Source: Psammoneis japonica
Taxonomy: Eukaryota
DNA length: 64,000 nucleotides
NCBI GenBank assembly: GCA_008632985.1
Contig: QPGO01000030.1
Coordinates: forward strand, 310,001 to 374,000
Reading direction: 5' to 3'
Shown here: piece by piece, positions 18,224 to 51,843 of the stretch
Numbering within the stretch: position 1 is the first letter of the stretch
Layout of the letters: each line of letters opens with the position of its first letter
The notes under the pieces: generated by a model
The model's database searches: none
What the model was told of the DNA's origin: nothing
What the model saw: the letters and a program-made list of their open reading frames with translations, nothing else
Position numbers and translations under genes: made by a program

Positions 18224-18509
18224 GGCTCCGTCTCACCTTCTGCTTTCTTGTGATGGGATGTGTGATGTTCAATGTGATGTGTGATGTTCAGTGTGATTTT
18301 GGATTTTTGATGGCCATTGTTTGATGTCGCATACGTCACCCGATCCTCATGCACGAAGATTTGCAATAAAAGATCCAAAATGGCGCGCGTTGTTCACGTG
18401 CGCTTCTTCACCAGTGCAAGTAAGTCTGCCGGATGCGGCATGTATGTACTCCGAAGTGCTGCAAGCTTCTCTGCTTCTGTACCTGCTACTTCTAGAGCCC
18501 TTGGGGCGC

Positions 18510-18843
18510 GTTTTCTGTTCAGTGTTCGATCGCTTCCTCATCCTTTGTGGCAAGAGATACTTCCTTTCTGGAACTGATGTTCTCCAGAACCATGCGAGAT
18601 TTTGGGTGATGTGACCAGCACAAACAGCCGGCCGCTGCTCGATCAGGTGTTCCCGTGATGAACATTTTCCTTTTTTTGTGGCCAAAAAGACACAATTTTG
18701 TGGTTGGCTTTCTTTTAACTGAAAATGGAAAAGCCATGTGGTGATTGTCAGCAGCCAGCACTGTCTCCACCAGCTTTCAGCTGCTGCTGTGCTCCACACA
18801 CAAAGCGGAGAGACAGCTGTGTGAGCACCAACAACAAAGATCC
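18510..18843 (+). repeat. Dispersed ~330 bp repeat, copy A (partly hypermutated)
   Basis: Aligns to 23212-23531. Shared core tcctttgtggcaagagatacttcctttctggaac; both give the minus-strand peptide VPERKYLLPQR. Confidence 0.85.
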
Positions 18844-20330
18844 TTGCATCTCACATCTGCTTCATTCTGTTGCCTGGCACTGGCAGGTGCATTCTTGAGT
18901 GACAAAGACATGGTGTGTCCAGTTCTTCAAATGTGTCAGAAGAGGGCCACAGTGTCTTGAGCAGATGCTGCCTGCATTCGGCATGATCTTGCAACAAAGC
19001 AAGCCAGGAAAAAAGCCACAAAGAACGCTGTGCTGGAAACAGTCAAGGCCAAACAAGCCAAGTTTGGGTCTGAACAAATGCCTTGCAGATTCATCCCAGG
19101 TCTGGCACTTGGATGCAACATCGTCAAGGCTCGTGACACATGCGCAACACACTTGAAAAAGAGAACAAGATTCTGGCACAACTGAGTGACTTTTGTGGGA
19201 AGCATCCAACCTGACATTGCCTCCACCTGCCTTGGCAACCCACCAGGTTCTTCAAAAAGGAGAGACAAAGAAGGAGGTCAACCCAGGGGACAACTGAGTC
19301 ACTTTCACTTTCGCCGGAAGCATCTGACCAGACATTGCCTCCACCTGCCATGATGACCCCATCAGCAACTTCAGAAAGGAGGAAGAAAGGAGGCAGACCC
19401 AAGCAAGGGGGAACCCAGCACCTCCATGGTTGTCAAGAAAATGCAAGCCAATGTTGCTGCCACCCACATGCTTGTGCATCTGCTCAAGAGCCAGTGTGGA
19501 CACAGCCATGAGAGACCAAGGTTGCAGGATGAAACAGTCAACTTCCCCATGGCACCATCAAAGAAACAATTGTGAAAGCAAAAGCAAAGTGTTCTCTTGG
19601 GGAGGACATCACCTTGTCAGCTTCTCTTGTCACAAAATGTGCAGGCCACAAAAACGCAAATCCGAGAGGTGTGCATTCTCCGATGGCTCTCCTCCTCCAA
19701 CGGATTTTGGTCACACATTTGATGGCACTGCAGTGCACCAAGTCACCATCACAGCAAAAAGAGCTCCTTGAGGCCACCAACTCAATGATCAAAGGATCAC
19801 CCACTTGAAAAAAAGGTTGTTGAGTGGAGATGCTGCAACTGCGGTTGGGGGGGGGGGGGGGGGGGGGCACCAGATGATGAAAACAATCTCACAGCAAGCA
19901 AAGAGCAAAGCTGGGGCCCAAGCCTCTTGCAAGAGCTTTGTGAAAAGGCACAAGGATGAGCCAGGAGCAACATTTCCAAAAGGGTTTGATGCCAACAGGC
20001 AGAAGTGGACAACTTGCTGCAACACTGAGTTCACATGCATGAAGAGAAGTCCATGCGAGCGGCCGCACACGACCTCCTGCAGACATGCAGAGGAGCCACA
20101 GCAGAAAAGCTTGACAAGCCCAAGTTCGGAGATGTCAAAAGAAAAGAGTTGCATCCAAAGCTGAGGTGCATGGCCTTGTGACCCAATGCAAGATGATGAG
20201 CGGCCATTGCTCCACTTGCGTGGACGAGACTGGAAACAATGCCAGCCAGAAAGACGGGGGTGCAACTCATCGAAACATCAAGTGTTTGTGGAGAAGAAGG
20301 GCTCTGCGCACTGCTGCCCATGAGACTGCG
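18600..20330. mobile_element. TpA-free, CpG-reduced repeat-derived island 1 (decayed element, family unknown)
   Basis: One TA in ~1.7 kb by manual scan. Internal ~55 bp duplication (~19176-19232 vs ~19290-19350) and a poly-G tract at ~19847-19867. Confidence 0.65.
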
Positions 20331-20625
20331 ATTACAACGGACGCTCGCTGGACGACAATGGGAGTCAAGAATTCGTTTTAGGAGAGCTTTTGCTGTGCGT
20401 GATTATCATGCAAGCGGGCAAGGAGGACTTCCACATCATGAGCGAGCGATGGCGATCGAGCGAGCATTCGATTTGGTGTCGTCTGTCGTCGGTCCCACAC
20501 TCCACCCACTCCACCGAAATAAATGATGCGATCTTGATTGCGATTTTGAAATTGCGATCGATTGATTGATTGTTGTCAAACTCGCGACGTGACACTGTCG
20601 ATTAATCCGGCAATGAACTGCAAGG

Positions 20626-22590: not shown

Positions 22591-23211
22591 GGAGTAGACG
22601 ACTCAGTACGAATAGCAATTAATTCATGTTTATGCGTAACAGCAAGCATGCTACAGGACTGAGCGTCTTGCGCGACAACCAGTAACGACTGCTAAAACGG
22701 ACACGGATCATCGTCTGTTTTGGAGTGGCACGATCGCGGAGAAGCGAAACTTGGTACTCATGACGCCGATGCTGCGTTCGAGGTCGGTATCCCCGTGCTG
22801 GCTGGTCTTCTTCAATAGCCGACGAGGATCCAAAGGAGGCATTGACGAGAAATTACTGCCCAATACGAGCTCTACTTTTGTGGCGCCAGACAAGGATGTG
22901 ACTGCGACGCTCCTGTTGTTGAGGCAATGAAACCGACACCACAAACCTCACTCGGGCAAGCAGCAAACGTGTTTTGGGTCATCAAAGAAGGCAAACAACA
23001 TGGCTGTAAGTTGCTTGGCTCTCGGTGTACTTCCTTGTTGCAACGATGTCACCGTGCTTTGAGCATGTCCCCGATGTATGACGTGAGGAGCAAAAAGTGA
23101 ACGAAGGACCTTGATTCGCAGCATTTCAGCCACTGTTCGCATCCCCCTGACTGACGATGCCGCACTCTCCAGTTATTGCGCACCAAGTTACACCTTGAGA
23201 TTCGCCACGTT

Positions 23212-23531
23212 ATTATTTGTTCAGTTTTCGGTCGCTTCTTCGTCCTTTGTGGCAAGAGATACTTCCTTTCTGGAACCAATGTTCTCTTCTAGGAGCAAGC
23301 GAGAGTTTGCGTGATATGGTGATCGCGCAATGTGGTGGTCACGCCATGAACATTCTCCTTTTTGTGGCGCAAAGATCTACTCTACCTACTAGTACTTGTA
23401 ATCGCTTTTCTTTTAACAGAGTGAAAAACATCATTTAGTGACTGCCCGTAGTTAGCACTGCCTACAGCTTTAACCACTACATTTCAAATCCAGCAGAGAG
23501 ACGATTACGATTAGAAGCACCAACAAAGATC
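23212..23531 (+). repeat. Dispersed ~320 bp repeat, copy B (retains TA and CG)
   Basis: Same orientation as and homologous to 18510-18843. Confidence 0.85.
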
Positions 23532-23933
23532 TAAGTGTTAAGCCGGACAAGTACTGTAGAGGGTACCAATCGTTTCATGCGAGAAAGATAAAGCCACGTT
23601 GGTTTATGGTGAAGCGTTTATGATCTCTATCGTCCCAGGAGTCGTGGCCTGATGCACAACGTCCGGCAATCACAGTGGGAAGAGGGCACACGGACACCAT
23701 CTTGGTAATCAGCATTTGGCTTTGTAAATTGTCGACAAGCACACAAAGGCAGCCATGGGGAGAACAAGTGAAGGCCACGCGAAATATTCTCGACTGGACG
23801 GTGGCTCGTTCGCCACCAGAAAGAAATAGCAACAACAGAAACACTGTCCTTCCTATCTAGTTCTACACCGTTTCGTCGTCAGATGGAATGATTCAAACAA
23901 GCTTCCATGAACAAAAAGAAAGGCACTTGAACT

Positions 23934-29178: not shown

Positions 29179-29599
29179 CTTCTTGTTTAGCGACTTGCTC
29201 GTGCAATGAAGAAAAGATCGAATACGGGTATGAGCTAAATTCCACCGCTCACATCATCAGGGTGTCCCGAGATTGGCGTCCTGGTAACAAATCGGTATTA
29301 ATAACCCGCAGCGACTGCTCTGTCATTTAACGCAGTACCGGAAGTCGCCATTGCGTCTCCCAAAGGCAGGAGGCAAAAAAAATAAGCGGCATCAGCGACC
29401 GACGCGCGCGGTCGACGCATGGACTCACCACACGATGGAGAGTTGCATGTTGTGATACGAATGGACTGACCATCCAAATCACGACGGGGATCCCCTCACA
29501 GGATCGAAGATCAAGATGGAAGAAGCTCAACTTTCGTGGCCCCCAACTGTTCGAGAGACAAAATTTACCAAAAAGCTTCATCCCACGAAGAAAGAATTA

Positions 29600-32500
29600 G
29601 TTGTCACAATGAAGAATCACTGTTTTGCCCCACTTTTTTTTTGTGCACAACAGTGTGCTTTTCTTGTTTTTCTCTCTTCAGCTGGGCAAGCCAGCCAAGG
29701 ACAGTGGTGTGGCAGCAGGTGCAAATGTCTTCATCATGCTCCACTGCTGTTTGTGTCAGGCCTGAGTCCATCTGTTCTGCTGTCCATTTGGGACCTTTGA
29801 GTTTCCTGTGCCATTGTGATCCTTCAATGCGCGCTGACAGGTTTTCATCCTTTGCAGGCTGTGAGAGAAGGGTGTGTGTTTCACACAACAAGAAACAATG
29901 TCCCCATGCCAACAAACATGTCTGCCATTCTTTGGGTGCTGGTGATTGGTGAAAACAAGTGGGGGCAGAGACTGGCCCTCACATTTGCTGTGCCCCCCAT
30001 GTTTTTGAGCTGGTGGTGCTGAGATGATTGCCCGCCGTCCTGGGTCACACCTCATTTGCCCAGGAATTCTGCATGGGAGCCTTTGCAGCTGTTTGACAAG
30101 CTCAAGTTTCAGAAACACTTCCATGTTGTCACACAAGCTGCAAGCCTCCAGAAAGCATGGCAACTGGCAAGTGCCAAGAACACCCTTTGAGAATGGACAC
30201 ATTTTGATCAGACATGGCTGCCAGGACAAGAGAATCTGGGTCAGTTGCTTGTCACCCTTGTGTGATGAAATGACCAACATGCAAGGATTGTGAACAACAG
30301 GATGAGCTGGAGATGCACTTCACTGCCCTCATCTTTGCATCTTTGAGCCCAGATGTGGCAATGTCCATGTCATCTCAAAACAAAAAGCTTCCTCAAGAGA
30401 CTCCAGAATTGCACTTGCAAACATCCAGCATTGTCCCAATTTGTTGTTGGTCAGTTTAGAGAGTGCATTTCCAAGTCTGGATTGTGCACTGGTGGGCTCT
30501 TTGGTTTCTTTCATTTTTGCTTTGCACTCAACAATGTAGAAATCCCAACATTGTTTGGGGGGGGGGGGAGGTTCTGTGAGGGTCTTTCAAAGATGCTTTT
30601 GAAATGGTCTGCCAAGAACACCAGCCATTGACAGGACAGTCTTGACCTTGACACCACAAATCATCACACTGCAAGAAGAACACTGTGTTTCAAAAAGCAC
30701 AAGGCCATCTTTGGGAGATTGTGTGGCTGAGACAAGAGTGGGGCAAGGTTGCTGTTTCCTGTGACTTGGATTTGAGGAAACAAGAAATCAAAAGGCCCAC
30801 ATTTGCACCTGCCACCACAGCACTCATGGCAGCCAGCTTGTCATCAAGTCTGTTTTCTGCAGAATGAAGCACAAACTCAAACCCAGAAGAAGAGGAGTTG
30901 CCAGCAGGGTTGTTGAAGGTCCCATCTCCAAAATCCTGTCCAAGCCAGCAACAGCAGTGTTGCAGCAACAGAAGAAATGTTCAACATCCTTTGTGGAGTT
31001 CATTGTTTTGAGGCATGCCAGGGGGACATGTTTTCAATGTGGCATCTCTTCACCATGATTGCTTCTTTGGTCAATTTCAACCATGCAATTGGTTTTGTCA
31101 GTTTCAAAGACATCTCTGGGAATCTGTTTTGCAGGAGAGACTCCATTGGATCATTTTGTCATGACCCTGAAAAAGTCAGGTGAGCGGGTGCTTCACACAG
31201 ATCAACTCTGTGTGAGTGCCTCCATGATGACACTTTCCATGACATTGTGCTGGGACAATGTTTTTCTTGGTGCAAGCTTTTGACCAGGACAACTTCAGAA
31301 GCAGCTGTGCAATGCTTTTCACTTTGAGCCATGGAATGCAAGTGTGGTGCAACATGTGGCAGTGGCAAGAGGAAGGAGACAATTCATCCCATGCATGTGA
31401 AGTGCAGTTGTCAAAAGTGGCAAGCTCTGCATGGCATGAAACCTTCAGGACAGTGCACAAAGGCAGTGCCCTTTTCTTCTGATGGGGCAACATTTGAAGG
31501 AATCTCTACAATCAGGTGTGTGGTCGTGCACCACTCACCTTTGATGGGAAAACACAACCAAGGGAAACAATCAGTGACAACAATTTTGTGCATGTCAAAA
31601 GGAAAGAAATGCATGAAACCCCAACCCTTGGCTGCAGAGCAAAAACCCAAGGCACCCAACACTTTGAAATGACACCTTCAAGGGTGGCTGTCAAGTTCTT
31701 GTTTGACGCTTTGGCAAAAGCAACTGTGACACACCCCAGTGCTTGGGAAATGATCCCACACACTCTTGCAAGTTGGTTGAACAGGGGGGTTGGCACACAG
31801 AGTTGAGGCTGCCGCCGTCATTGCTGCAGAGGAAAGGCATTCTTCATGCCCTGCACTTGGGAGCCTTTGCAGCTGTTTGACAAGCTCAAGTTTCAGAAAC
31901 ACTTCCATGTTGTCACACAAGCCACAAGCCTCCAGAAGGCATGGCAACTGGCAAATGCTGAGAACACCCTTTGAGAATGGAGACATTTTGATCAGACATG
32001 GCAAGCCAAGAGAATCTGGGTCAGTTGTTGCTTGTCATGGTGTGATGAAACGAGCAACATGCAAGGATCAAGAACAACAGGATGAGCTGGAGATGCACCT
32101 TGCTGCCCTTGCCTTTGTGTCTTTGAGCCCAGATGTGGCAATTTCCATGTCATCTCAAAACAAAGAGCTTCCTCAAGAGACTCCAGAACTGCACTTGCAA
32201 AACATCTGGCATTGTTCCAATTTGTTGTTGGTCAGTTTTGAGAGTGCATTTCCAAGTCTGGATTGTGCATTGCCAGGCTCTGTGGTTTCTTCACTTTTTG
32301 CTTTTTGCTCAACAATGTAGAAATCCCAACATTGTTTGGGGGCTGGGGGGGAGGTTCTGTGAGGGTCTTTCAAAGATGCTTTTGAAATGGTCTGCCAAGA
32401 ACACCAGCCATTGACAGGACAGTCTTGACCTTGACACCACAAATCATCACATTGTGAGAAGAATGCTGTGTGTCAAAAAACACAAGGCCATCTTTGGGAG

Positions 32501-35500
32501 ATTGTGTGGCTGAGACATGAGTGGGGCAAGGTTGCTGTTTCCTGTGACTTAGATTTGAGGAAACAAGAAATCAAAAGGCCCACATTTGCACCTGCCACCA
32601 CAGCACTCATGGCAGCCAGCTTGTCATCAAGTCTGTTTTCTGCAAAATGAAGCACAAACTCAAACCCAGAAGAAGAGGAGTTGCCAGCAGGGTTGTTGAA
32701 GGTCCCATCTCCAAAATCCTGTCCAAGCCAGCAACAGTGGTGTTGCAGCAACAGAAGAAATGTCCAACATCCTTTGTGGAGTTTCGTTGTTTTGAGGCAT
32801 GCCAGGGGGGGCATGTTTTCAATGTGGCATCTCTTCACCATGATTGCTTCTTTGGTCAATTTCAACCATGCAATTGGTTTTGTCAGTTTCAAAGACATCT
32901 GGGAATCTGTTTTGCAGGAGAGACTCTGTTGGATCATTTTGTCATGTTGCCCTGAAAAAGCCAGGTGAGGGGGTGCTTCACACAGATCAACTCTGTGTGA
33001 GTGCCTCAATGATGGCACTTTCCATCATGACATTTTGCTGGGACAATGTCTTTCTTGCATGCTTGGCAAGGATGAAACATCAGAGTCGGCTGTGCAGCCA
33101 TTTTCACTTTGAGCCATGGACACACAAGTGTGGCACAACATGCAGCAGCAGTGACAAGAGGAAGGAACAATTTGTCCCATGATGCATGTGAAGTGCAGTT
33201 GTCAGAAGTGGCAACCTCTGCAGAGCATGAAGCCTTTGGGACAGTGCGCAAAGGTGGCACCCTCTTCTTCTGATGGGGCAACATTTGAAGGAATCTCTGC
33301 AATCAGGTGTGTGGTGGTGTGCTCACCTTTGGCAAGAAAAATGCAACAAAGGGAAACAGTCAAGGACAACAGCTCTCTGTGCATGTCAAAAGGAAAGAAA
33401 TCCAAACAACAACCCCCAGCCCTTTGCTGCAGATCAAGAATCCAAGGCACCACAACACTTTGAAAAGACACCTTCAAGGGTGGCTTTCAAGCTCTCCTTT
33501 GGTGCTTTGGCAAAAGTGTGTGTTGAGCTTGCCCCCCAATGTGAGAAGCAAAAGCCTGCTTTTGGCTCACAACAAAAACTGCAGAAGGCCCCATGTGCTG
33601 CCAAAACCTTTTACAAATCATGTTTTCTGCAGAATGAAGCACAAACTCAAACCCAGAAGAAGAGGAGTTGCCAGCAGGGTTGTTGTAGGTCCCATCTCCA
33701 AAATCCTGTCCAAGCCAGCAACAGTGGTGTTGCAGCAACAGAAGAAATGTCCAACATCCTTTGTGGAGTTTCGTTGTTTTGAGGCATGCCAGGGGGGGGA
33801 TGTTTTCAATGTGGCATCTCTTCACCATGATTGCTTCTTTGGTCAATTTCAACCATGCAATTGGTTTTGTCAGTTTCAAAGACATCTGGGAATCTGTTTT
33901 GCAGGAGAGACTCCATTGGATCATTTTGTCGTGACCCTGAAAAAGTCAGGTGAGCAGGTGCTTCACACAGATCAACTCTGTGTGAGTGCCTCCATGATGA
34001 CACTTTCCATGACATTGTGCTGGGACAATGTTTTTCTTGGTGCAAGCTTTTGACCAGGACAACTTCAGAAGCAGCTGTGCAATGCTTTTCACTTTGAGCC
34101 ATGAAATGCAAGTGTGGTGCAACATGTGGCAGCGGCAAGAGGAAGGAGACAATTCATCCCATGCATGTGAAGTGCAGTTGTCAAAAGTGGCAAGCTCCAC
34201 ATGGCATGAAACCTTCAGGACAGTGCACAAAGGCAGTGCCCTTTTCTTCTGATGGGGCAACACTTGAAGGAATCTTGGTGGCTGTCAAGTTCTTGTTTGA
34301 TGCTTTGGCAAAAGCAACTGTGACACACCCCAGTGCTTTGGAAATGATCCCACACACTCTTGCAAGTTGGTTGAACAAGGGGGTTGGCACACAGAGTTGA
34401 GGCTGCCGCTGTCATTGCCGCAGAGGAAAGGCATCATGGGGAAGTCACTTCTGCATGTGAACAAAACTGCAAAGAAATTCTTGGCACCTTGTTCATCCCT
34501 TTTTGGGGCATCCCAGATGGAGTTGTTGGCATGCTGCATTGGGAGCTTCTTCATGCCCTGCACTTGGGGGGGCCTTTGCAGCTGTTTGACAAGCTCAAGT
34601 TTCAGAAACACTTCCATGTTGTCACACAAGCCACAAGCCTCCAGAAGGCATGGCAACTGGCAAATGCTAAGAACACCCTTTGAGAATGGAGACATTTTGA
34701 TCAGACATGGCAAGCCAAGAGAATCTGGGTCAGTTGTTGCTTGTCATGGTGTGATGAAATGAGCAACATGCAAGGATTGTGAACAACAGGATGAGCTGGA
34801 GATGCACTTTGCTGCCCTCACCTTTGTGTCTTTGAGCCCAGATGTGGCAATTTCCATGTCATCTCAAAACAAAGAGCTTCCTCAAGAGACTCCAGAACTG
34901 CACTTGCAAAACATCTGGCATTGTTCCAATTTGTTGTTGGTCAGTTTTGAGAGTGCATTTCCAAGTCTGGATTGTGCATTGCCAGGCTCTGTGGTTTCCT
35001 TCACTTTTTGCTTTGTGCTCAACAATGTAGAAATCCCAACATTGTTTGGGGGCTGGGGGGGAGGTTCTGTGAGGGTCTTTCAAAGATGCTTTTGAAATGG
35101 TCTGCCAAGAACACCAGCCATTGACAGGACAGTCTTGACCTTGACACCACAAATCATCACATTGTGAGAAGAATGCTGTGTGTCAAAAAACACAAGGCCA
35201 TCTTTGGGAGATTGTGTTGCTGAGACAAGAGTGGGGTAAGGTTGCTGTTTCCTGTGACTTAGATTTGAGGAAACAAGAAATCAAAAGGCCCACATTTGCA
35301 CCTGCCACCACAGCACTCATGGCAGCCAGCTTGTCATCAAGTCTGTTTTCTGCAGAATGAAGCACAAACTCAAACCCAGAAGAAGAAGAGTTGCCAGCAG
35401 GGTTGTTGAAGGTCCCATCTCCAAAATCCTGTCCAAGCCAGCAACAGTGGTGTTGCAGCAACAGAAGAAATGTTCAACATCCTTTGTGAAGTGCTTTGTT

Positions 35501-38060
35501 TTGAGGCAAGCCGGGGGGGGGGCATGTTTTCAATGTGGCATCTCTTCACCATGATTGCTTCTTTGGTCAATTTCAACCATGCAATTGGTTTTGTCAGTTT
35601 CAAAGACATCTGGGAATCTGTTTTGCAGGAGAGACTCTGTTGGATCATTTTGTCATGTTGCCCTGAAAAAGCCAGGTGAGGGGGTGCTTCACACAGATCA
35701 ACTCTGTGTGAGTGCCTCAATGATGGCACTTTCCATCATGACATTTTGCTGGGACAATGTCTTTCTTGCATGCTTGGCAAGGATGAAACATCAGAGTTGG
35801 CTGTGCAGCCATTTTCACTTTGAGCCATGGACACACAAGTGTGGCACAACATGCAGCAGCAGTGACAAGAGGAAGGAACAATTTGTCCCATGATGCATGT
35901 GAAGTGCAGTTGTCAGAAGTGGCAACCTCTGCAGAGCATGAAGCCTTTGGGACAGTGCGCAAAGGTGGCACCCTCTTCTTCTGATGGGGCAACATTTGAA
36001 GGAATCTCTGCAATCAGGTGTGTGGTGGTGTGCTCACCTTTGGCAAGAAAAACACAACAAAGGGAAACAGTCAAGACAACAGCTCTCTGTGCATGTCAAA
36101 AGGAAAGAAATCCAAACAACAACCCCCAGCCCTTTGCTGCAGATCAAGAATCCAAGGCACCACAACACTTTGAAAAGACACCTTCAAGGGTGGCTTTCAA
36201 GCTCTCCTTTGGTGCTTCGCAAAAGTGTGTGTTGAGCTTGCCCCCCAATGTGAGAAGCAAAAGCCTGCTTTTGGCTCACAACAAAAACTGCAGAAGGCCC
36301 CATGTGCTGCCAAAACCTTTTACAAATCACCAGTGTGTCTCAACCATTCATGTCCTTGTTGGCAAAGATTTCTTTCTAGACCATCTCTGCAAATGTGCAA
36401 TCACAACAACACCAACATCAAGAAGGAGAGATTGAAACCAGCATCAATGAGAAAGTTTTTGTCCAACCTCAAATGTGATGACTTTGTTCAAAAGCTCATG
36501 CTCCACCAGTGTGTCAGTCATTCTGCCAGCACAGGCCATCTGCTTCTGGGCTTGCTCAATGGAGGCCACCAAACTGCTCACCTTCAACAAAGCCACTTGA
36601 CCAACACAGGGTTGCTCAATGTAGACAAGTCAATCACACAAAGGGCATGTTGCTGGGTGGAAGCTTTGGCAAGGGCCACAGTCTTGAATGACAGCATTTC
36701 ATTGCAACCCTCATGAAGTTGAAGACCTCCTGTGGCAAAAAAGATTGTGGGACTTTTCAGTGGAACAAGCAACAGCCTTAACTGGAGGGGTTGGTGGGAG
36801 GGACATTGTTGTTTGAAGGTGCTGTGCAGCTGTGTCTGTGCTGATGCCACTTCCACAGGGGGGTGAGCAGGGAGATTGTGGCCTGCACAGCAGCGTGCTG
36901 CTTGGCTGCCAATGTGACCACCTTTGCAACCCCCTTGATGTGTGCTCCAAAGGCCAGGCATGACAAAGTTGCAGCAGGGATGTGCAAAAACAGAGTCCCC
37001 TGTGCTTTGGTGATGTTGCAGATCAGTTTGAAAGGTGGCCGCTGGGTTGCAACAGTCTCCTCCTGTTCCAGTGCTCTGTGAGTGCACTGCACAAATTTCA
37101 CTCTTGACAACACTGCTTGAATGTCACAACAACCAAGATGTGGCTCTGCAACCTGAACACACATGCAAAATTAACCCAAGACAAAACAGCCACACAGCCC
37201 CTTTCAGCCAGGGCCCCTCAGCAACCCAGCCATGACTTCTGTTTGTGGCTGGGGTTGTTGGCTCTCATTGCAAAATGACAAGGAAGTCTCACACATGCAT
37301 TGATGCATTGACAAAAAGAACTTCTGAATCAACAAAAAAGAAGACAAAAGCAAAAACTGTGGGGTGCATTTGTTGAGTTGATGCACATGATGATTCAATG
37401 AACAAGATTCAAGCTGTGAAAACCCATGCCAACAAACACAAATCAAGGCAAAAGAAACTCAAAAACATGACACCAGATGACTCCTTCAAAGGCTGACCTG
37501 CTTGGCTCCAGGAAAATCAAATGGCACCATCGCTCAAAACAAAATGAGAGACAGACTTTGCCCCTGTGTGCTGAGGTTCTTGCACAAGTCTCCAACAAAG
37601 AGCTGGCTTTGATGCCTCTGGAAGCTGCACCTGCCACAGGCTCACACCTTTCAGCTCTGGCAATGTTGAAAGAATGAGGAGATGGCTGGCATGCAAAGTG
37701 GCAACATTGCTGGCAAAAGAACAGCAGCGGGTGTTGGCAGATGAGTGCGCACGTTTTTTTTTTTTTGCTCTTCTTGTGTGGGTGCACAGTGTGAGATGTT
37801 GAGTTGTTTTTTGAAGCTGCAGCCAAGGCATCTCTCTTGGCTTTTGCAAGTGAGCTTCTGGGGCACATGTTTGCAAAGATCCTGATGCTGCTGGGGCTGT
37901 GCTCGCACAAGTGGGGGTGCAGATCAGGCTGCTGTTTTTGAGCACGCGTGTTCATCCACAAACAGCAGCTGGCACTTCCCCCCCCCCCCCCCCAGCCCAA
38001 TGGCCCGATGCCGCAGTTGACACAGGTTGGGTTTCATTGTCGCCAACAACGTCATCGAGG
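29600..38060. mobile_element. TpA/CpG-depleted island 2: decayed element(s) with a nested tandem array
   Basis: Near absence of TA and CG with a TG/CA excess. All ORFs are short and almost Tyr-free. Poly-C at ~37978-37993. Confidence 0.7.
30075..36330 (+). repeat. Higher-order tandem duplication (A-B1-A-B2-B1-A-B2), main period ~2.7 kb
   Basis: Block A (cctttgcagctgtttgacaagctcaag) starts at ~30075, ~31859 and ~34570. Block B (gttttctgcaRaatgaagcacaaactc) starts at ~30852, ~32635, ~33622 and ~35344. 31859-33620 is near-identical to 34570-36330. Confidence 0.92.
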
Positions 38061-38399
38061 GAATGACAGCTAGCTAGCTAGCTAGAGCCACCACTGGCTA
38101 CTAGAGTAGAGAGCAGTTTTGGCTTGCGAAATTGAGTGCGTCGTCCGCTTGCGTGCACGCTTGTCCGAATTTTGCGCAATGTTGCGAAGCATCATCATCG
38201 CTCCATCAACTCGCTCTCGCACTCATCAACACGCCGCTGCTTTATTTCACCTTCAAACTTCACAGTCAAGCCAGAGACATGGCGAAGGATCGAAGCTGTG
38301 CCGATATTAATAAGAAGCTAGGCAATCAAGAAGAACGTAATATCAGGGGCGAAAGACATCGGGGTGGTAGAATCATCAAAACTACAGTAGGTCACAATC

Positions 38400-41721: not shown

Positions 41722-44700
41722 GATGATTGATATACCGGAGTAGTAAGACTAAGTCGATGCTTTGATCAAGTGGTCAACTTCGGAATTGTGAGAGGATCAG
41801 CGTGATTGATGTTTCGACGCTTGCTCGGATGGGATTGCTTCGACATACTAGACTTTTCGTACATTCTACGGACTAACGATTTATCGTCAAAACCATCCGT
41901 CAATCACGAAAGAATAGCGGGCGGGCAGGTTTTGTACACAAAAGGTGATAGTACAATGATCATACCATGCCCTACGCCGCTTGATGCGTAAGGCCAACAA
42001 ACGCTCATCAGACTTCATAAACACGCATTTTCGTAGCAGTCATATACAACGTTGAATGAGAAGATAACATTTTCTTGGTCATGGGAAGTGGGCGGAGGAA
42101 CTTCTTCTCACTGACTTTGAACTAACTACAACCCTCTGTTCCATCTTCAAGCCACTGTGCTGTTGTCCATCCCATTGTCTCTTGCAGCCTGTCTTACATC
42201 TTGGTGTTCTTGGCTGTGCTGTCATCACATTGTGCACTCCAGTCATTGTCATCATCAGAGGGGGAGGTCAATGCAGGCCCTGCATGGCTCCATTTGGTTT
42301 TCTTGCATTTGATGTGCACCAACCAAACACAATTTGATCAACCTCCATTGTTTTGATGGAGCCTCATTTGATTCCTGTGGCACCTGCAACAACCCAGCAG
42401 GAGCTGAAGCACGAGTTGCAGAGTTCCCAAATTTGGCATCATTCATCCTCTCCACAAATGATGTGGATTGCCCTCAACTCTCCAGCTCCTGCCATTTGCC
42501 CAAGGGCATTGCATGTGCACCATCTTTTCCAGCGATGCTGAGTTTTGCAGGATTTTTGTCTGCTCTTTTCTCCCACAATGCTCCAGCTTGACCAGGCTGC
42601 AACAAACAATTCAACTTGTGTCTTTCTTGCCACAATTTTTTGTTGCCATGTGTCGCCCCTCTGCTCTCCACACACTGGGTGCCAATTTGACCCTCCTCAT
42701 TTTGTGCATCTGATGAGTCTTGCACTGTTGAGCACCACAGTTTTGTGGCTCCTTCCATTTCATCATCAAGGGTGTGAGCCTTTGGTGTCTTTCTGGCTTG
42801 ATCTCTGGCAGAACAGCTGTTGATTTCACCTGCGACTTTTTTTGCCACACTCAAAGCACAAGCACAATGGCATCTTCCGTCAACCCAGGCAGGTGTGCCA
42901 GAGATTGGCTGGCCATCAAGTCTTCTCCTTGTTGCACTCTTTTTTGTTGTGCACAGCTTCACAAAAGATTGTGAAGTGAGTTGACGATTGCATGCCAGTG
43001 CATTTTCAAGAATGACTGGCGCACAAAGTGTTGCTTGTGATGCTGGCATGGCACAACACTCACAGGCTGCCTTTTTTTTGTCTGTGTTCAGACAAGGCAA
43101 GGAAACACCATGAAAAAGTCAAGGCTCAAGAGATGAAAAGCAGAGTGCAAGTTGACAAAAAGCCCAAACCAAGGAGCACCAGGGGGCTGTCTCTGCATTC
43201 TGCCACAAGACCAAGGTTGGCATCAATCTTTGGACATCTGACACTTGTGAGGATTTGTGACAGCAGCTTTTTTTGCTTTGTGCAAAGCAAAGAAGTCTCA
43301 CACAGCAAGAAAGTTTCTAACAGCAGACTCAGACTCATGGTTGGTTGAGTCTCAGGATCCTTCTTCTCTGTGCATGCAGTCAATGCCGTCATTGACAATT
43401 TTTTTCAGTCACTTGCTGGCGCACTCTCTGGAGAGCTGCCAGTGAAGTCAAGTGATGACTTTGTACAGCCTGCTGCACAGGTCATGTCTTGCAACATCCA
43501 ATTTGAAAGCCAGGGCATGATGATGCCAAGATTCATCAACAGACAAAGGGGGCTTGTCTGCTCCTGTGGGACAGATCATTTTGTGTGTCTCAGCACGCCT
43601 GTGAGCAACTCATTGCACACCATCAAAGTGCAGCTCACCAGCAGACAACCAATCACAAGGCTGAAAAGCTTTGCTTGAATGACTTGCCAAGATTTTTCAG
43701 CTGCCTTGGCTGAGACTGAAGCTTCTGATGCACTTGAAAGCTGGGGAGCATTGTCGCTGTGGAGTGTGAATTGTTGTGCCATCCACTTCGCAACTTGTGC
43801 AACCCAGAACTCATGTTGTCAATTGCAGCTGCAGCACCACCATTTGCACAACAACCAATTGATGGCAGAGCTGCTGGACATTGACACAACTTGTGCCAGT
43901 GACTTTGTTGCATCATTGTGCTGTTGTTGGTGATTTCCAAAAATGTGCTGACTTCTCGATGCTGCAAGAGGCAGGCAGGAGCGACATTTTGTGCTGCCAA
44001 GAAAACAAGCTTTCTTTTGTTGTTTCTTGTTCAAAACACTGTCAACAACTCCATTGTGTGCAGCCAAGCAGTGTGAAGCCAAGGTTTCTGGAATCAGTTG
44101 TGGAGCAAGATGAGCAATCAAATGAGTCACCGCATCATGCACCAATGGTTTGCAATGAGCCCACGCTTTGGAAAGGGGGCTGGCAAAAGAAAAGAGTTGC
44201 CTGAGCATCTTGTTTGTCTCATCTGCACTTTGTGGCCCAGACAAGCAATGCAGCCAGTTTCCAAGAGAGCACGGGGAGTGCCAATGGCAACACTGCCGCA
44301 GTTTCAAGATGCCAGGAGCTGGAAGCAAAATGACAGGCACACCACCAACAAAACCATTTTGGCTCCACAAAGATGATCAGCAACAAATGCTGCTGCAGCA
44401 TTGCTTCAAATGATGGGGCAACCTGCACACTAATTTGCAAACATGTGGGGAGCCAATGGCAAAAATGCTGCAGTTCCAAGACGACCATCAACAGAGCAAA
44501 CCTGAAAATTAATTTGCCAGCAAAGTGCTCAAAACTTGAGCCAGTCATCTTCATCAAACCACACAGAGACCACAGCACACATGCTTTGATTTTGTGTCCT
44601 TGGCAAGCCACACTTGCTTGTTGTGTGACCTGTCTTGGAGCAGCTTTGGCGCAGCTGTGCTGGCACAACTTTTTCAGAGGCTTGCACTTGTTCTCTTCTG

Positions 44701-44819
44701 CTGGCTTCCTTTTCACATGTTTTTTTGCTTCTTTGTGCTGCTGCTTTGTTTCTCTGCATGTTTCTGACTGCATGTGCACTGTGCTCAAAGAACAAGCACA
44801 AACAAAAAAGGAGTTCCCC

Positions 44820-45085
44820 CAATGGCCCAAAGCTTTTGCACTGCTTCTGTGGAGCAAACGCCTTGCGGAGAATCAGATCATGACAACAGATTGTCTGGAT
44901 GTGATCAACATTGACATCTTGTGTGTTGTCATCATCTTCCAATTGCATTTGCAGTTTTTGACATCTGACCACAGCTGTGTGATTGATCTGTCCTTTGCAC
45001 GCATCCACAATTGTGGTGCAATTGATGACACACATGACAATGTGTGATCACAAACATGCACAATTCCACGCAATTCCTTCTGCTT
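44820..45085. repeat. LTR-like direct repeat, copy 1
   Basis: 44821-44901 matches 47837-47918, and 44895-45085 matches 48957-49137. The two copies bracket the gypsy coding relic. Confidence 0.7.
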
Positions 45086-45099
45086 CACAGTGCATGCTG

Positions 45100-47775
45100 C
45101 ACTCACCTCCCCAATTGCACATTAGATTCACTTGTCAAACAGCACATTTTGGAACTCCCCAAGAGTTTCTGCAATGGACAGCAGCTCTTTTTCCATTGTG
45201 GTGCATCACATCTGCACTCCATTTGGCTCTTGGCTGTGGAAGGCAACAGGTTGTTTGTCTTGGGATGTGACCTCACCCAGTTGAGAATTGCTTGCTTCTG
45301 TGTGCATTTCAAAGGGTTTGTTGAATCTTGGTGTGACAACAACACATTTTTTGATGTGATTTGCTTCAGATTTTCAAAGGCTTTTTGTTCTGTGCTTGTC
45401 CATTGCCACTTGACCTTGGTTGAGGTGAGTCTGGTCAGGCAAGTGTGTGAGATTGTCAAGGCCACATGTCTCAACAACAGCTGATCGTGCCAACAAAACA
45501 CTGGAATTCCTCATGTGAGTCTTGGGAGCAGCAAACAATTGAATTGCTTCCACTTTCTCAGGGGTCAGTTTGGTGCCTTTTTGCAAGATGTGAAACCCAA
45601 GATGGCCTGCTTTGGGTTTTGCAAAAAAGGATTTTTTGGCATTGACTTTTGAGCTGGCTTGTTCAAGCCATGTGAATGTGGTTTTGAGCTTCTGGAGGTG
45701 ATCTTTGAAGTCAACACCTTTTGTCAGACATGGTGTGTTGTCAACACACATCCTGACAAATTCTGAGCCTGCCATGAGCTCACTCTCGTGTGTTTTTAAA
45801 AATCATGTGGAGCTCCACAATTCCCGTGGGGGGCTGCAGCACTCAAATTTGCCGCAAGGCATCATTGCTGTGCACAGCCAATGCACGTGTGCGGTGTTGG
45901 CTTGACGTGGCAGCACCCCATGTTCAAATCAAGTGACATTGCATGCATGAAGCCCTTGAGCTTCTGCAGCATGTCGCGAACATTGAGCAGGGGATGTGGA
46001 GCATGCATTGACCTCCAACTCAACTCACAAAAGTTGGGTGAAAATCAAACTCCACCATTTTTCTTGGGTTGAAGAAAGGTTGGAGCTGCCCACTCTGAGT
46101 GGTTTGTTTTTCTTGAGACTCTCAGTTCACAAAGTCTTTTGCCTTTCTTTCTGGTGGCTGCCTGATCAACTGGCTTTCCAGCCCATGTGCCTGAAGAGCT
46201 GTTGAAAAGATTTTCAAATCTTTTTGGAAGAACAAAGTTCAGTTGCTTCTGCTCCTACGGAATGAGGTGAGTTGCTGCTGCAGTCACATTGCTGATGTTG
46301 GCAGCATGACAGTCAGCATCAAGGATCCTGGGTGTTGACCCTGTCATTGAGACACTTTCCATGGCACAAGATTCCTCAATGTGATTGGCAATCAGCTTGA
46401 AGACCTCAGCATCAAAGAAAACATCCACACACTCTTCATTGGTGCAGTTGCATCTTCCCATTTAATTCCTTCATTTGCGATGTTGAGCATGACTCCAAGA
46501 CTGCTCATCAAGTTTTGCCCCATGATCACATCATGTTGACATGAAGAAAAGAAGGAATGCTGCCACATGTGCCATCTTCTCAATCATTTCATGCTTGTCC
46601 AATTCAGGCAATGAGAACTGCACCCTGCATTTGCCATTGGTTGTAAAGAGCCCTCCCTTGGTTTCCCAAGTTTTGGTGGCAGATTCTTCAGTTCTCATTT
46701 TTGGCGTGAATTTGCACAAAATTGTGGTTGATGACATTCTGCTGTCAAGAAGAACACCCAGAGCAATGATTGCTGGACTGGCATCAGTTGTTTTGGCCCT
46801 TTTTTTTTGGGCTTCCTGACATCCAGTGATGTTCTTGACCACTTGTCAACAGGTGCCAGTCATTCCTTGGATTTGCTGCGTGTCATCCTGTCAAGTTGGC
46901 AGTTTTCTTCACTGAGATTGTCAGCACCAGAATCTTCACCCTGGCGCTTTCTGTCACTCTTCAACAAAGTTGCCTTGAGAGTTTCATTGATTGTCTGAGC
47001 AATCATGGTGTTCAACTCTTCCTTGTGAGAGGTGTTTCTATTGTCATGGCATGACCACGTGCAATTGTGCCATTTGAATGTTGTCATTTTGGGCTCTGCT
47101 CAGAATTCTCAAGGCATTCCTTCAGCTGGTCTTTTGGTGAAAAGGAGGACAGAACTTGCATTCTTCATTGACCTCCTGAGTCCATGCAGTGTTTTCTTGA
47201 ATCTTTGCTCACTCTGGTTTCTTAAGATCATCCCAGTGCAGATGTGGCTTCTGGTTTTGAAGTGCATTCTTTGGGAAGACATGGTTTGAGAGATGATGCA
47301 GACATTTTTTGAAAGATCCTTTGGCTTCTTTGTCATCCATGTTTGTCACCTTGTTTCTCAAAAATTCAAAGAGTGTCTCCCTGCAACAACATGTGCACAA
47401 GCCAGAGCTCATCAGCTTGCTTGTGAATTTTCTGTCCAACCAAGACTTGGTGACATGTTTTGAGGATTTCAGTGCACTTGGGGACACTCCTTGTTTGTTG
47501 CAGTGCTCAACATTGACCATGCAGGCATGACTCTTCTTGTCCTTGGGGTGAAAGCACTGTTCGATCTTGAGGCACTGACTTGGTTTGAGCATCTTTGGCT
47601 TGGAAATTGACTCCAATGGCACAGGAACAATCTTCTCCTGCTTGATGATGGAAGACTTGTTGGCTGCAACATGAGGTGAAAGCTTCATTTTTGTGTTTTT
47701 ACCTTCTGCAGTGTGTGTGCACAATGCACTGTGCACAAGAAATGAGTGCAAACAAAAGTGGAATGGATCGCACAA
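45100..47775 (-). pseudogene. Ty3/gypsy LTR retrotransposon gag-protease-RT-RNase H relic (integrase not seen)
   Basis: Protease VLLDSRMSSTTI...WETKGGLFTTNGKCRVQFSLPEL and HDVIMGQNLMSSLG. RT FVRMCVDNTPCLT...KVNAKKSFFAKPKAGHLGFHI (decayed YIDD...YLG). Linker WQWTSTEQKAFENLK and RNase H start LLSHQDSTNP. Confidence 0.88.
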
Positions 47776-47836
47776 AGTGGAAAATCATGAGATTAGATTT
47801 TATTCTGAGATTTGAAGTTTCTCCAAATGAGCTGTC

Positions 47837-49140
47837 AATGGCCTGAAGCTTTTGCACTGCTTCCATGGACTGAAAGCCTGATGGAGAATCAGATCATGAC
47901 AACAGATTGTCTGGATGCAAGCACAATTCTGCCTTGGTTTCATGGCCACAAACCCTGCATGTTTTTCTGTGCAAGCTCTGGCACTGATGTTGCCTTTTTC
48001 AGATGGCACAACAATGGTTCTCACCTGCCTGTTCAGATGTGTTCTCACATTGACATTGTGCCTTCGTTCTGTGATCATTGGCAATCTCATGCAGTGGGAG
48101 GTGATTGGCATCAAGCCCCCTCTTGGTTCATTTGCCCAGCACTCTTCTTGGCACATTTTGTTCTTGCATGCAAAGTTTCTGCTTCTGCATGTTCTGCAAG
48201 TCATTTCAGATGGATGACTTGCCAAGCTGCCAATTGCTCTCTCTCCACACCTCTCAAGCATCAACAACCCCCCTTCTTCCTGCTGTCCATTTGAGTTTCC
48301 TGAGTCATGTGGTGGACATTTGCCCATCGTTGCCGTTTTCACAAGTTTGAAGATGACACCAACAACCAACTCAGCATGCATTGGCCATTCTTCCATGCAC
48401 CGGCAAGTCTGCACAAGTTTCAGTGCAAGCTCCATGTGTCTTGAAGGTCATTTTGGACAATTGACATGCCAAATTGCTGACTGCTCTTGGTCCATGCCTC
48501 TTTGGCATCAACAACCCCCCCCTTCTTCCCATTGCCTGCTTGAGTTCTCTGCTCCATGCTGTGAACAATCCTTTGTTGTTGCTGCTCCCAGAAGCACAAA
48601 TTTCAGCCCAGTTCAGCACAAGTTGGTGGTCAGTTTGTGTCCCTTTCTTTGTCATGTTGAAGCTGTTCCAGACTGCCTGTTTTGCCTTTGCCATCAGACC
48701 CAAACCCAGGAAGATGGCCTGATCAAAGCATTGAGAGCTTTCCTTTTGAAATCTGATTTTGCTGGTTGCTCCTGTTTTTGTTGTTGTCAGCTGTTTCCAG
48801 CAGGCACCACAGCCTTGTGGCATCATTCTTGACTGATTGTTGTGAGCCCCTGCCACATCACATGATGTGCTGGGGGTGTGGGTCAGATTGTTGCCAGAGT
48901 TGCTGGTTGGAAGCACAGAAGCACTTTAAAATGTAGAATTTGGGTTTTGCTTTTTGTCCGGATGCAGTCAACATCGACATCTCATGGGTCATTGTCATTG
49001 TTTGATTGCATTTGCAATTTTTGACATCTGATCACATCTGTGTGATTGATCTGTCTTTTGTGCACATCCACAATTGTGGTGCAATTGACACACACAACAA
49101 CACACAATTGTGAATGTGCACAATTCCTTCTGCTTGACAA
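47837..49140. repeat. LTR-like direct repeat, copy 2, split by a ~1.04 kb insertion (~47920-48955)
   Basis: The two halves of copy 1 are separated here. tgtc(t/c)ggatgca occurs at both insertion junctions. Confidence 0.65.
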
Positions 49141-49399
49141 CACATGCTGCAGCACATGTGCTCTCAGGGACTCTGTGCTCTTGTCACTTGTGGTCACATT
49201 GCTCCTCCACAACACATCATCTGAACTCCACACTCTTGCAAACCCAGCTCCAAACAAGGGGCTCCAATGCGCTCATTTGTTGGTGGGTTGGATTTTGAAA
49301 GCACATCTGTGCCAACTCCAATTTCCCACAGCTGTGAACAACTGTCTGATTTAGCCACTGCCCCCTGTGAACACTTTTTGACATTGCTTCATGATGGCT

Positions 49400-50430
49400 C
49401 AACTTGATTTGTCATCAAGACCTTTGAAAGCCCTGGCATGCTGTTCTTGTGACATGTCTCACAGTTGCTTCATGCGCAAAATGCTGATGAGAGAGTTCCT
49501 GCTGATTGAGCACAAGGTCACAGTCAAAATGACAGCATCCACTCCAAACATCTTCTTCAGCAGCAAGTCAGTCTCATCTTTGCTCAACTCTGCATCTGAC
49601 AATCCTGTTCCCTTTTCCAATTTTCTGTGCACAAAGCCACCACAGCATTCTGGGTCAGTGCAACCAGAGTGATTGCCACAAGACAAAGAAACATATTTGG
49701 AATGTTCTTTTCCATTTTCAGAACTTTCTTGTTGGTTGGTCTCTTCTCTTGTTGGTCCCATGAAATTGCCTTCAATGCTGTCCAGCAGTGTGCCTTGGAT
49801 GTCGGAGGTCACAGCTGCACTGTTGAAGCTCTTGTCTTTCTTTTTCTCATTGTGCAACAAATCAGCAGAGTTCTTCCCAGTGTGAGCAGCACATGAGAAC
49901 ATTTCTGACTGACTCATGACCTTGGGACCAGTTGTTTTGACTTGCTTTTGTTGCAAACAGCTGTCTCCTTTTGATTCGCCATTGCTTGTGGACAGATGCA
50001 AAAACATGGAAGCACAATCTCCCAAACATTTGCCGCTCTTGTTGAGGAGCAAGTCTTTTCCAAACTGCTCTAGCATGCACTCCTTTTGGCAACTGCAGGA
50101 CCATTTGAGTTGCTGGTGCACTCACTGTCATGCTTTCCAGCCAGCAAACCTGGTTTTTTCTCACCATTTTTCAATGCTTTGTGCATCACTTGGCAACATT
50201 TCACACAAGCTGTGCAAGAAATGCTGACAGCAACAGGCAATGACAGCACATGAGAGATCAGAGCAGCCGTGCTTTGGGCCCCTGCAGAGTGGTTTCCAGC
50301 CACATTCTCAGGTGGAGCCACATCCATCCATTGCTGCTGATGCCTTTGTTGTGCAGTGCACATTGCTGTTGGCCCCACTTCCACTTTTGATTGCATGTCA
50401 GTCTTTGTCAAAGTGTTGGGGCATGACATT
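49400..50430 (-). pseudogene. Possible Mutator-like transposase relic
   Basis: Ordered decayed motifs GNHSAGAQSTAA (cf. NHxGSxxxME), DLLHNEK (cf. DxxHxxK) and CGNHSGC (cf. GxHxxC). Recognition is tentative. Confidence 0.35.
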
Positions 50431-51843
50431 GCAGCTTCTTTCTCTTGCCTGTGGTTGTTCTTTGTTGCTTTGTTCTGCTTCCTTTAGCAGCAAGCACTCT
50501 GTGTGTGCACCTTGTCTGTCTTTTTTGTCAGGTTGTTTGCAGTTGGTGCAAGAACCCCTGCACCACCCTTGTGCCATTCAAGAATGCTTGCACAGAATTG
50601 ATGCACGGGCACAGACACACGTTCAGCCTGGATTGTCCGCATGAGAAACTCTTTTCTTTAAGAACATCTCTTGTCCTTGCATGCACAGCTGTGTGAAACT
50701 TGTCCTTTTCATTGCAAGCTGTGCAACAGTGTGTGACAGCAGAGCCCAGCCCAGCCCGTCCTTCTTGAACTCAACCAACTTTAGATTGGGTGAGAGCGAC
50801 ACTTTGCTTTGCAACATTTGTGATGGTTAAAAGCCCAGTGCAGAAGAAGTCCAAATTTGTGGATTTCTGTGCATTGTGGCACACCTTCTGGTGTGCGCCT
50901 TTACAGCCAATGGGGCAACTCATCAGAGTTGCAAGGTGGGGCCTGGCTCTCTTTGTTGCCTTTGTTGTCAATGGCTTCAAACTCATTGAAAATGTGCCTC
51001 ACATGACTTCTGATTTTTTGTCAGTTGAAGTCAAGAAATTGGAGGTGGCATCAGGCTTGCAATTGAGATGTTTGTCTTTTGGCGTGTCATGCATTGTTGC
51101 ACCCAGACAGCAGCATCGCAATCCATGCAGCGGAGCACAATTTTGGCTGCTCCTTTCACATGCAGGTTCCCAAGGTCATGTCTGAAGTCTGCAACTGCAG
51201 CTTGACTGTCTGTGCCACATGCAAGAAGAGTCTTTCTCAGATCCTGTTGTGGGGAGGCACCAATGCTTCACTCTGTGTTGCCAAGGGAATTAAACACTTG
51301 GAGCAACTTTGTCCAATGAAGCCACAACTGTGAGTGTTCATTTGTGACCGGGCGACTTGTGAGCAACGGCAGAACAACTGGATGAAAGCGACCGGGACAA
51401 AAGGAAGCAACATGCCGCCCGGATGTGAGCAATGGCACGGATGTGAATCGTATGTGTGTTGCGTCCCGATCGGACGTTTGTTGATGGGTTGTGTGGAGGG
51501 AGGAGGGAAGGAAGCTGACAGCATCTAAATTCGTGGCGTTATAGAATTTTTTTAACATTCCTGTCTCAACAATGATGGTAGAATCTTCTTTCTGTATGGC
51601 TCTCAAACACCTCGTAACATCTTTCGTTTTGACTCTTCTCATGCTGTTCAACACAGGTTAACTGAAGCAAGACCCATGGGATCATTGCAAGTAGTAAGGT
51701 TGGCAGTTGGGTTTACTACTTTAAACGTCGTAAGCTAGCTCCATCGCTAAACGTTAGAGCCAATGAAGCAAGATTTTTTTTCTCTGCAGCATTAATTTCA
51801 AATGGTACAAGAGAGAAAAGTGCCTTTGAAGGGTCTATTTGCT

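Follow-up and report, generated by a model that had tools for sequence, protein, structure and literature searches.

The DNA analysed here is a stretch of 64,000 nucleotides from Psammoneis japonica (GenBank assembly GCA_008632985.1, contig QPGO01000030.1, positions 310,001 to 374,000 of the forward strand), referred to below as the window. Three blocks within it, here called islands, are nearly free of the dinucleotide TA, poor in CG and rich in TG and CA. The best overall explanation, to which we assign a probability of roughly 0.55, is that silenced repeat and retrotransposon DNA of a diatom nuclear genome underwent hypermutation in place and symmetrically on both strands, that both self-complementary pyrimidine-purine steps (TpA and CpG) were affected, and that two processes were at work. 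As to the narrower statement that a real hypermutation directed at TpA has taken place, we are highly confident. The three islands, none of which is assigned to a strand, are:

18600..20332, no strand: island 1, a TA-free (1 TA) and CG-poor block lying between two genes; observed/expected (o/e) ratios are 0.01 for TA, 0.26 for CG, 1.82 for TG and 1.62 for CA.
29599..38070, no strand: island 2, TA/CG-erased, mostly tandem copies of a unit of ~1.7 kb; 16 TA (o/e 0.03) and 35 CG (0.07).
42196..51450, no strand: island 3, TA/CG-erased relics of retroelements; 26 TA (o/e 0.04) and 71 CG (0.14).

For sliding windows and dinucleotide tables the islands were taken as 18600-20330, 29600-38060 and 42130-51450 (19,513 bp in total), and the remaining 44,487 bp of the window served as background. 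The islands together hold 43 TA (o/e 0.03; background 0.58) and 135 CG (0.12; background 1.01), while TG (2224; o/e 1.75, background 1.11) and CA (2197; 1.89, background 1.15) are in excess. Base-shuffled islands contain 1359 ± 28 TA and 1083 ± 24 CG, and the minimum over 376 background windows of 1.7 kb was never below 45 TA or 73 CG, compared with the single TA of island 1. The original prediction, made by eye from the letters, had described precisely such islands between genes and intergenic DNA of normal composition; all of this was borne out, and its counts (16 TA in bases 1-180, 1 TA in 18601-20330) were exact on recount. Scaled to background density, the islands lack about 714 TA and about 1007 CG, 1721 dinucleotides in all, and have a TG+CA surplus of 1669, with the GC content unchanged (0.47 in the islands, 0.48 in the background). 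A deficit and a surplus of nearly the same size at steady GC content are what one expects if single transitions converted both dinucleotides.

The depletion extends over all sequence contexts. TA is depleted in all 16 flanking contexts, the commonest survivor being TTAA (10 in the islands, 72 counted in the background), and CG in all 16 NCGN contexts, where the ratio of residual to background counts is 0.02-0.11 and 0.44 would be expected from length. Other dinucleotides are hardly touched: AA shows no loss (o/e 1.25 in the islands, 1.13 in the background), TC, CC and AC change little, and TC/GA is slightly lower (0.95-0.97 vs 1.16). Error-prone repair of the Pol-eta type (WA→WG), one of the agents put forward in the original prediction, was rejected as a poor fit; its signature needs A→G at AA as well as at TA. 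Because TAA and TAG are nearly absent (32 together in 19.5 kb, as against 500 TGA), the islands yield many long open reading frames (ORFs) on both strands, 99 of them being stop-to-stop ORFs of at least 90 amino acids.

Which way the changes went can be read from a coding relic in island 3:

45310..46152, minus strand: relic of reverse transcriptase (RT) and RNase H of a long terminal repeat (LTR)-type retroelement, with frameshifts and TGA stops (phmmer; weak Pfam match to RT_RNaseH_2).

The minus strand of 44011-46410, translated with stops read as X, was compared by phmmer with 1.84 billion representative proteins. It matched 496 of them at E≤1e-3, the best at 1.3e-30 over query residues 87-367 (281 residues), and the relatives carry RVT_1 (PF00078), RNase H (PF17917/17919) and aspartic protease domains. 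By homology over RT and the RNase H that follows it, the relic is assigned to the LTR-type retroelements. None of the 800 codons of the relic encodes Tyr, which makes up 4.5% of the best homologue. At the 597 aligned Tyr cells of 150 homologues the relic has Cys in 35%, His in 31% and Tyr in 0%, compared with 73% Tyr retained and 4% His when homologues are set against each other. At the Arg positions of the homologues the relic has His (14%), Cys (12%) or TGA (11%).

A column count, in which each of the 88 columns conserved at ≥60% among 136 intact-looking matches was counted once, gave the same picture. The relic retains 51 of these columns. Changes were interpreted up to residue 171; past residue 180 the reading frame has probably changed. 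In the well-aligned part all four conserved Tyr are changed (to TGT, TGC, TGC and CAT), as are all three conserved Arg (to TGA, TGT and CAT). Leu has given way to Ser (TCA) at two columns and to Pro (CCA) at one, Thr has given way to Met (ATG) at one, and behind a C there are two Asp→Asn, one Gly→Ser and one Glu→Lys changes, with no Asp→Gly or Glu→Gly at conserved columns. In total, about 16 of 23 changes fit TA→TG/CA or CG→TG/CA, and seven do not. A shorter comparison is offered by the edge of island 1:

18490..18850, plus strand: left border of island 1, with an unmutated paralogue at 23193-23539 (purine/pyrimidine-coded BLAST and alignment).

Opposite the TA sites of this paralogue in the 23-kb region, the part lying within the island shows TG (4), CA (3), TA (1) or something else (4), and opposite its CG sites TG (2), CG (1) or something else (4). 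The coded BLAST search, whose E-values are invalid with a two-letter alphabet, found no other unmutated paralogue above noise.

Retroelements related to the relic have ordinary TA contents. From metagenomes, 78 loci were obtained for the 80 best relatives of an intact-looking homologue, P0001, to which they are 50-100% identical at the protein level. The TA o/e ratio is 0.56-1.18 (median 0.75) in all 78 and none is TA-depleted, so the family is not natively TA-free. Some of these relatives lack CpG only (CG o/e 0.04-0.12 at a normal TA of 0.62, e.g., L015), so that this element family also undergoes CpG decay with TA left intact in other hosts. A word-index search with the island RT gave 53 matches, 47 of them new and all of these with Tyr, and no close relative. 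The conversions proposed from the bare sequence, TA to TG or CA and CG to TG or CA, are thereby supported: the former by the Cys and His in Tyr columns and by the 78 TA-normal relatives, and the latter by Arg replaced with Cys, His or TGA and by the Asp→Asn and Gly→Ser changes behind C. The outcome that would have spoken against them, intact family members with little TA of their own, was not observed.

The tandem copies of island 2 (89-98% identity) suggest how the conversion proceeded over time. The reference copy and its sisters lie as follows:

30069..31720, plus strand: tandem copy c1 (sisters c2, 31851-33516; c3, 34558-36225; partial c4, 33621-34275).

Copies c1 and c2 differ at 156 of 1640 positions, and double changes between CA and TG are the commonest single type of difference (23). 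Even sister copies that are 97-98% identical show seven of them. There are alignment columns such as (CA, TG, TA) and (CA, CG, TG), in which one copy is still ancestral and the others have diverged in different ways. The same ancestral sites were thus resolved differently among copies, which means that the conversion proceeded in place. About 24 columns are discordant between c1 and c2/c3 among roughly 110-160 converted ones (15-22%). From this we roughly estimate that about one site in three had yet to be resolved at the time c1 separated from c2/c3, and that most of the conversion took place earlier. The copies also differ at ~6.7% of other positions. That conversion continues is indicated by one site at which the window disagrees with a public sequencing run, X1:

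49694..49695, plus strand: residual TA in the window, TG in an X1 contig (one of the two differences in a contig of 3,090 bp).

Along the sequence the TG and CA outcomes follow each other without runs (z = +0.4, -0.4 and -1.9 in a runs test; -2.6, -1.9 and -0.3 for background stretches). Equal numbers of TG and CA and the lack of runs argue against processive deamination of a single strand and against editing of RNA from one strand followed by reverse transcription.

The losses of TA and of CpG are probably two separable processes. Within the window TA loss is the more complete (o/e 0.03 vs 0.12 overall, 0.01 vs 0.26 in island 1), and further relics were found in public data, where 17 of 269 related RT-type proteins contain less than 1% Tyr. 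In 16 of these most conserved Tyr columns are Cys or His; the exception is P0137, which keeps one of three Tyr and has no Cys or His there. Several of the Tyr-poor relics have also lost most of their Arg (P0007 keeps 1/5, P0025 0/5 and P0088 2/8). Three others have not: P0021 keeps 0/13 Tyr and 13/15 Arg columns, P0152 2/17 and 19/21, and P0171 2/13 and 14/15. Of the replacements that usually accompany CpG loss, Gly→Ser/Arg, Glu→Lys and Thr→Met are absent from all three, and Asp→Asn occurs once (P0171). Since P0021 retains 171 of 238 conserved columns (72%) although every conserved Tyr is gone, TA sites saturate long before general decay. ENA assemblies are the listed source of P0021, P0151, P0152 and P0171, the first of which lies on a contig of 18 kb. 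The DNA of P0021 was not found among viral contigs, and genome contigs gave only a locus 47% identical to it (L079). This locus lies in a Pseudanabaena metagenome-assembled genome, and two of the proteins (P0154 and P0167) are filed under bacterial names (Flagellimonas and Fusibacter); all three are RTs of eukaryotic retroelement type and probably represent eukaryotic contamination of bacterial assemblies or bins.

The original prediction had called the hypermutation restricted to repeats, which holds in part. Island 2 is largely made of tandem copies, and island 3 contains the retroelement relic as well as several segments that are multi-copy in X1 (summed contig depth up to ~1400). Other parts do not fit: island 3 includes single-copy stretches, and island 1 is barely repetitive, with an internal repeat of ~110 bp and the 360-bp paralogue at 23193-23539, itself untouched, as its only repeats. 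The content of the islands is otherwise little recognizable. Island 1 had no Pfam match in any ORF of at least 90 amino acids, and island 2 no protein-family match (Pfam on its ORFs and on the six frames of one unit). Pfam searches with 88 of the 99 island ORFs gave a single weak match, to RT_RNaseH_2. Read-through translations of the islands matched RT_RNaseH_2 (E 0.011) and, probably by chance, Tox-HNH-EHHH (E 0.096).

The mechanism that we propose has two parts. In the first, CpG would be turned into TpG or CpA by the ordinary deamination of 5-methylcytosine (5mC) in methylated transposon DNA; diatom transposable elements are CpG-methylated through DNMT5 (PMC9998398). In the second, separate and faster part, TpA would become TpG or CpA (A:T→G:C). 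The agent that we favour, with low confidence, is an enzyme that would deaminate adenine after T on either strand of duplex DNA within a silenced domain, which is chemically the simplest route; the resulting hypoxanthine would pair with C and be fixed as G at the next replication, and all Tyr codons would be lost along with many codons for Leu, Ile and Val. We infer, too, that the process is tied to silenced chromatin, that an enzyme is at work, and that its target is adenine rather than thymine; the genome-defence system named in the original prediction is likewise putative. As for targeting, DNMT4 may be a candidate, given that the diatom DNMT4 enzymes group with fungal RID and, according to the same source (PMC9998398), have no known function; being a cytosine enzyme, it would leave the A:T→G:C changes unexplained. 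On a broader scale, we tentatively suggest a dedicated pathway in diatoms, and possibly in further marine eukaryotes, by which silenced repeats are recognized and A:T→G:C changes are introduced at TpA of duplex DNA, by a natural adenine deaminase or a thymine-directed equivalent and independently of CpG methylation.

Several points weigh against this account. Two stretches of island 3, at 42.5-44.5 kb and at 49.5-51.5 kb, occur only once in X1 at ≥90% identity (depth 68-71), and the 360-bp paralogue of the island 1 edge, only 4.7 kb away, is unmutated; both misfit a strictly duplication-triggered mechanism. In this window CG and TA were lost together, and here one activity could have acted on both. 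The separation of the two losses draws on proteins whose CpG status was inferred at the protein level from Arg, Asp and Gly columns alone. ORF callers miss relics broken by CGA→TGA, which biases this sample to relics that keep Arg, and the same species may be the source of the Tyr-poor proteins found on other contigs. The run X1 may derive from the very sample behind the assembly; it excludes noise at the level of reads and does not represent an independent individual. Finally, the adenine deaminase step was derived only from chemistry and from context preferences.

The main rival places the damage on the pyrimidine. A dioxygenase of the TET/JBP type would oxidize T at TpA, to 5-hydroxymethyluracil (5hmU) or 5-formyluracil (5fU), and 5mC at CpG, and products that mispair (5fU with G) or are badly repaired would give T→C at TpA and C→T at CpG. 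This would explain why only palindromic steps with a 5-methyl pyrimidine (T and, presumably, 5mC) are lost and why the outcomes are strand-symmetric. There are also precedents, as 5hmU in dinoflagellate DNA reportedly favours TpA and TpC, and base J occurs at TpA of trypanosome telomere repeats. However, the T of TpG is kept, although it too is a 5-methylpyrimidine before a purine. The drop in TC/GA is only mild and can be explained by the coding content of the background, and the relic lacks Asp→Gly and Glu→Gly at its conserved columns. In P0021, P0152 and P0171 TA was lost without CpG, so that a single oxidase for both is not required. We regard this explanation as unlikely.

Still less probable is that no dedicated enzyme is involved and that the islands reflect a slow, context-biased equilibrium in late-replicating and poorly repaired heterochromatin, for instance through error-prone repair around deaminated 5mC. 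The process is indeed chronic, as seen from the 15-22% of discordant sites and from the differences at other positions among the tandem copies. An equilibrium at a TA o/e of 0.03, however, demands that TA mutates tens of times faster than it is re-created. Further evidence against it comes from P0021, which lost all conserved Tyr and kept most other conserved columns, from the occurrence of TA loss without CpG loss, from the undepleted AA, unlike in the Pol-eta WA signature, and from the normal composition of ordinary intergenic DNA beside the islands.

A sequencing or assembly artefact, in which modified bases (5mC, 6-methyladenine or others) were read as transitions in long reads, is very improbable. 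Transitions at modified motifs are a known error of nanopore callers, and the library type of X1 is unrecorded. This run contains 94% of the 31-mers sampled from 41800-51700. Contigs built from its exact 31-mers at a depth of 66-71 match 7.6 kb of island 3 with two differences, the flanks having a depth of 62-64. The individual contigs on the island measure 2,978 bp (no differences, depth 70.9), 3,090 bp (two differences, 68.4), 942 bp (none, 68.5) and 583 bp (none, 66.2). Miscalled modified bases are unlikely since miscalls on both strands would yield conflicting TG and CA words and not one clean single-copy path. The signature is also present in predicted proteins of other assemblies. A base-calling error, which the original prediction had named as a possible refutation, therefore fails to refute it: X1 carries the island bases at flank-like depth. 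Another run, X2, has cover on genes only and none on island 3, and no RNA run was listed for the sequence; neither point was used as evidence.

About equally improbable is editing at the RNA level, by which transposon transcripts would be changed by ADAR- or ADAT-like A-to-I and by C-to-U activities, reverse transcribed and reinserted. Island 3 being a retroelement and the sharp island edges, reminiscent of insertion borders, would suit it. The results contradict it, however. Copying into cDNA fixes the edits of one strand, whereas TG and CA are equally frequent and interspersed on both; tandem copies without a retroelement signature resolved their sites differently in place; and AA is undepleted, although a 5' A suits ADARs almost as much as U does. 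Scarcely credible, finally, is a native composition, meaning that these elements never had much TA or CG, in the manner of RNA viruses that shun UpA and CpG. In its favour, many RNA viruses deviate in the same direction (TG/CA up, TA/CG down), though far more weakly. It is contradicted by the relic, which has Cys and His at conserved columns of the Tyr that a working RT needs, and by the relatives, all 78 of which are TA-normal; the copies, moreover, differ by CA↔TG.

The hypermutation reading is thus preferred, and the shape of the islands remains to be described. Their borders are sharp to within tens of bases, the TA-free runs starting at 18716, 29598 and 42195 and ending at 20333, 38071 and 51451. 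The offset between the CG-free and TA-free footprints varies in sign and is weak evidence: on the left of island 3 the CG-free run extends 100 bp beyond the TA-free one, and the right edges show the opposite. In island 3 the CG-free (42094-51348) and TA-free (42196-51450) footprints are equally long and shifted by ~102 bp at both ends, which may be due to chance, as islands 1 and 2 have no consistent offset. The right edges include zones of the following kind:

20056..20332, 37904-38070 and 51349-51450, no strand: right-edge zones with normal CG and no TA; in 546 bp there are 29 CG (32 expected) and 0 TA (21 expected).

These zones are weak evidence, as they lie upstream of plus-strand genes and may be TA-poor by nature.

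The genes flanking the islands are typical of a phototrophic eukaryote and include Mg-chelatase H (ChlH), BTB, NUDIX/methyltransferase, radical SAM and NPR2 genes. The closest named relatives of the ChlH piece (56-70% identity) all come from diatoms, namely an Asterionellopsis-type MMETSP entry, Cyclotella, Thalassiosira, Conticribra, Epithemia, Mayamaea and Nitzschia, which marks the host as a diatom. ChlH itself (55727-59250, plus strand) consists of two overlapping ORFs in different frames (55727-57967 and 57871-59250), and the change of frame suggests an intron or a frameshift near 57.9 kb. The ORF to the right of island 2 (38391-39953, plus strand) has a NUDIX domain and a weak match to Methyltransf_32 (E 1.5e-5, below the Pfam cut-off). 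In the gene region that separates island 2 from island 3 (39400-41500) the X1 contigs differ much from the window by substitutions and small indels (e.g., 12 differences in 122 bp at 39913-40034), while the island contigs are identical to it. The mismatches look like those of a strongly diverged second haplotype or of a paralogue.

Saturating A:T→G:C change at TpA in chromosomal DNA would add a signature to the mutational ones known so far. Should an enzyme be responsible, we know of no earlier natural activity of this kind on duplex genomic DNA, and the finding would be of importance for the biology of genome defence, for diatom genome evolution and for base-editing tools. There are practical consequences as well. 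Gene callers emit long false ORFs from TA-free relics because these lack TAA and TAG stops, and the 17 of 269 related public "proteins" mentioned above are such relics. Homology searches tend to overlook them, as Pfam did here, giving only the weak RT_RNaseH_2 match and missing the RT. The original prediction knew of no described pathway with this signature, and our literature search likewise found no description of TA loss in repeats, in diatoms or in other organisms, within a full-text coverage that is thin for subscription journals. One preprint (10.64898/2026.05.21.726589) deals with adenine methyltransferases in retrotransposons and not with mutation.

In its outcome the phenomenon is a repeat-directed hypermutation of a known sort, and there is a substantial chance that its agent is categorically new. 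To our knowledge, the systems known to hypermutate repeats or retroelements, i.e., repeat-induced point mutation (RIP), AID/APOBEC and methylation decay, all act through cytosine. Methylation-driven CpG decay shares with the islands the strand-symmetric, chronic change of CG to TG/CA in every context, and the deamination of 5mC in methylated transposon DNA would be its source here too. It accounts for ~1,000 of the ~1,720 missing dinucleotides and fails for the ~714 TA: such decay leaves TA alone, whereas in the islands the loss of TA is at least as complete as that of CG. In basidiomycete repeats (Microbotryum, rusts) TCG is reportedly hypermutated to TTG (PMC5381629), which likewise is repeat-directed C→T change at CpG-containing sites outside the ascomycetes. 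That process affects TCG only and involves no A:T→G:C changes, whereas in the islands all 16 NCGN contexts are depleted.

The deaminases of the AID/APOBEC group resemble the proposed agent in that they act enzymatically against retroelements. They convert only C to U, on single strands and in TC, CC or WRC contexts, and leave strand-coordinated runs of G→A; the islands have no runs, their changes fall at CG and TA, and A:T pairs account for half of them. Closer in chemistry are TadA/ADAT and ADAR, which turn A into I, a base that is read as G. The context of TadA/ADAT also fits TpA: their target, A34, is preceded by the invariant U33, and evolved TadA prefers TA when acting on DNA. An ADAR-type activity would also affect AA and would be strand-biased after reverse transcription, neither of which is seen (AA o/e 1.25; 2224 TG, 2197 CA). 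We know of no natural member of TadA/ADAT/ADAR that acts on chromosomal duplex DNA, a point at which no literature search was aimed.

The likeness is greatest to RIP of ascomycetes, which is premeiotic and depends on RID/DIM-2: in both cases dense transitions fill blocks of repeats and transposons, the edges next to intact genes are sharp, and the coding capacity is destroyed. Fungal RIP changes C to T, mainly CpA to TpA, and thereby makes TA and lowers the GC content. The islands, in contrast, are erased of TA (o/e 0.03), rich in CA (1.89) and virtually unchanged in GC content (0.47 vs 0.48), and half of their changes are A:T→G:C. RIP also acts only on duplicated DNA and on all copies of it. 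In this respect the islands are mixed: islands 2 and 3 are repetitive, but part of the mutated DNA is present once only (at ≥90% identity), and the paralogue close by has been spared. If a dedicated pathway exists, it would be an A:T-directed counterpart of RIP that disables transposons in a GC-neutral manner.

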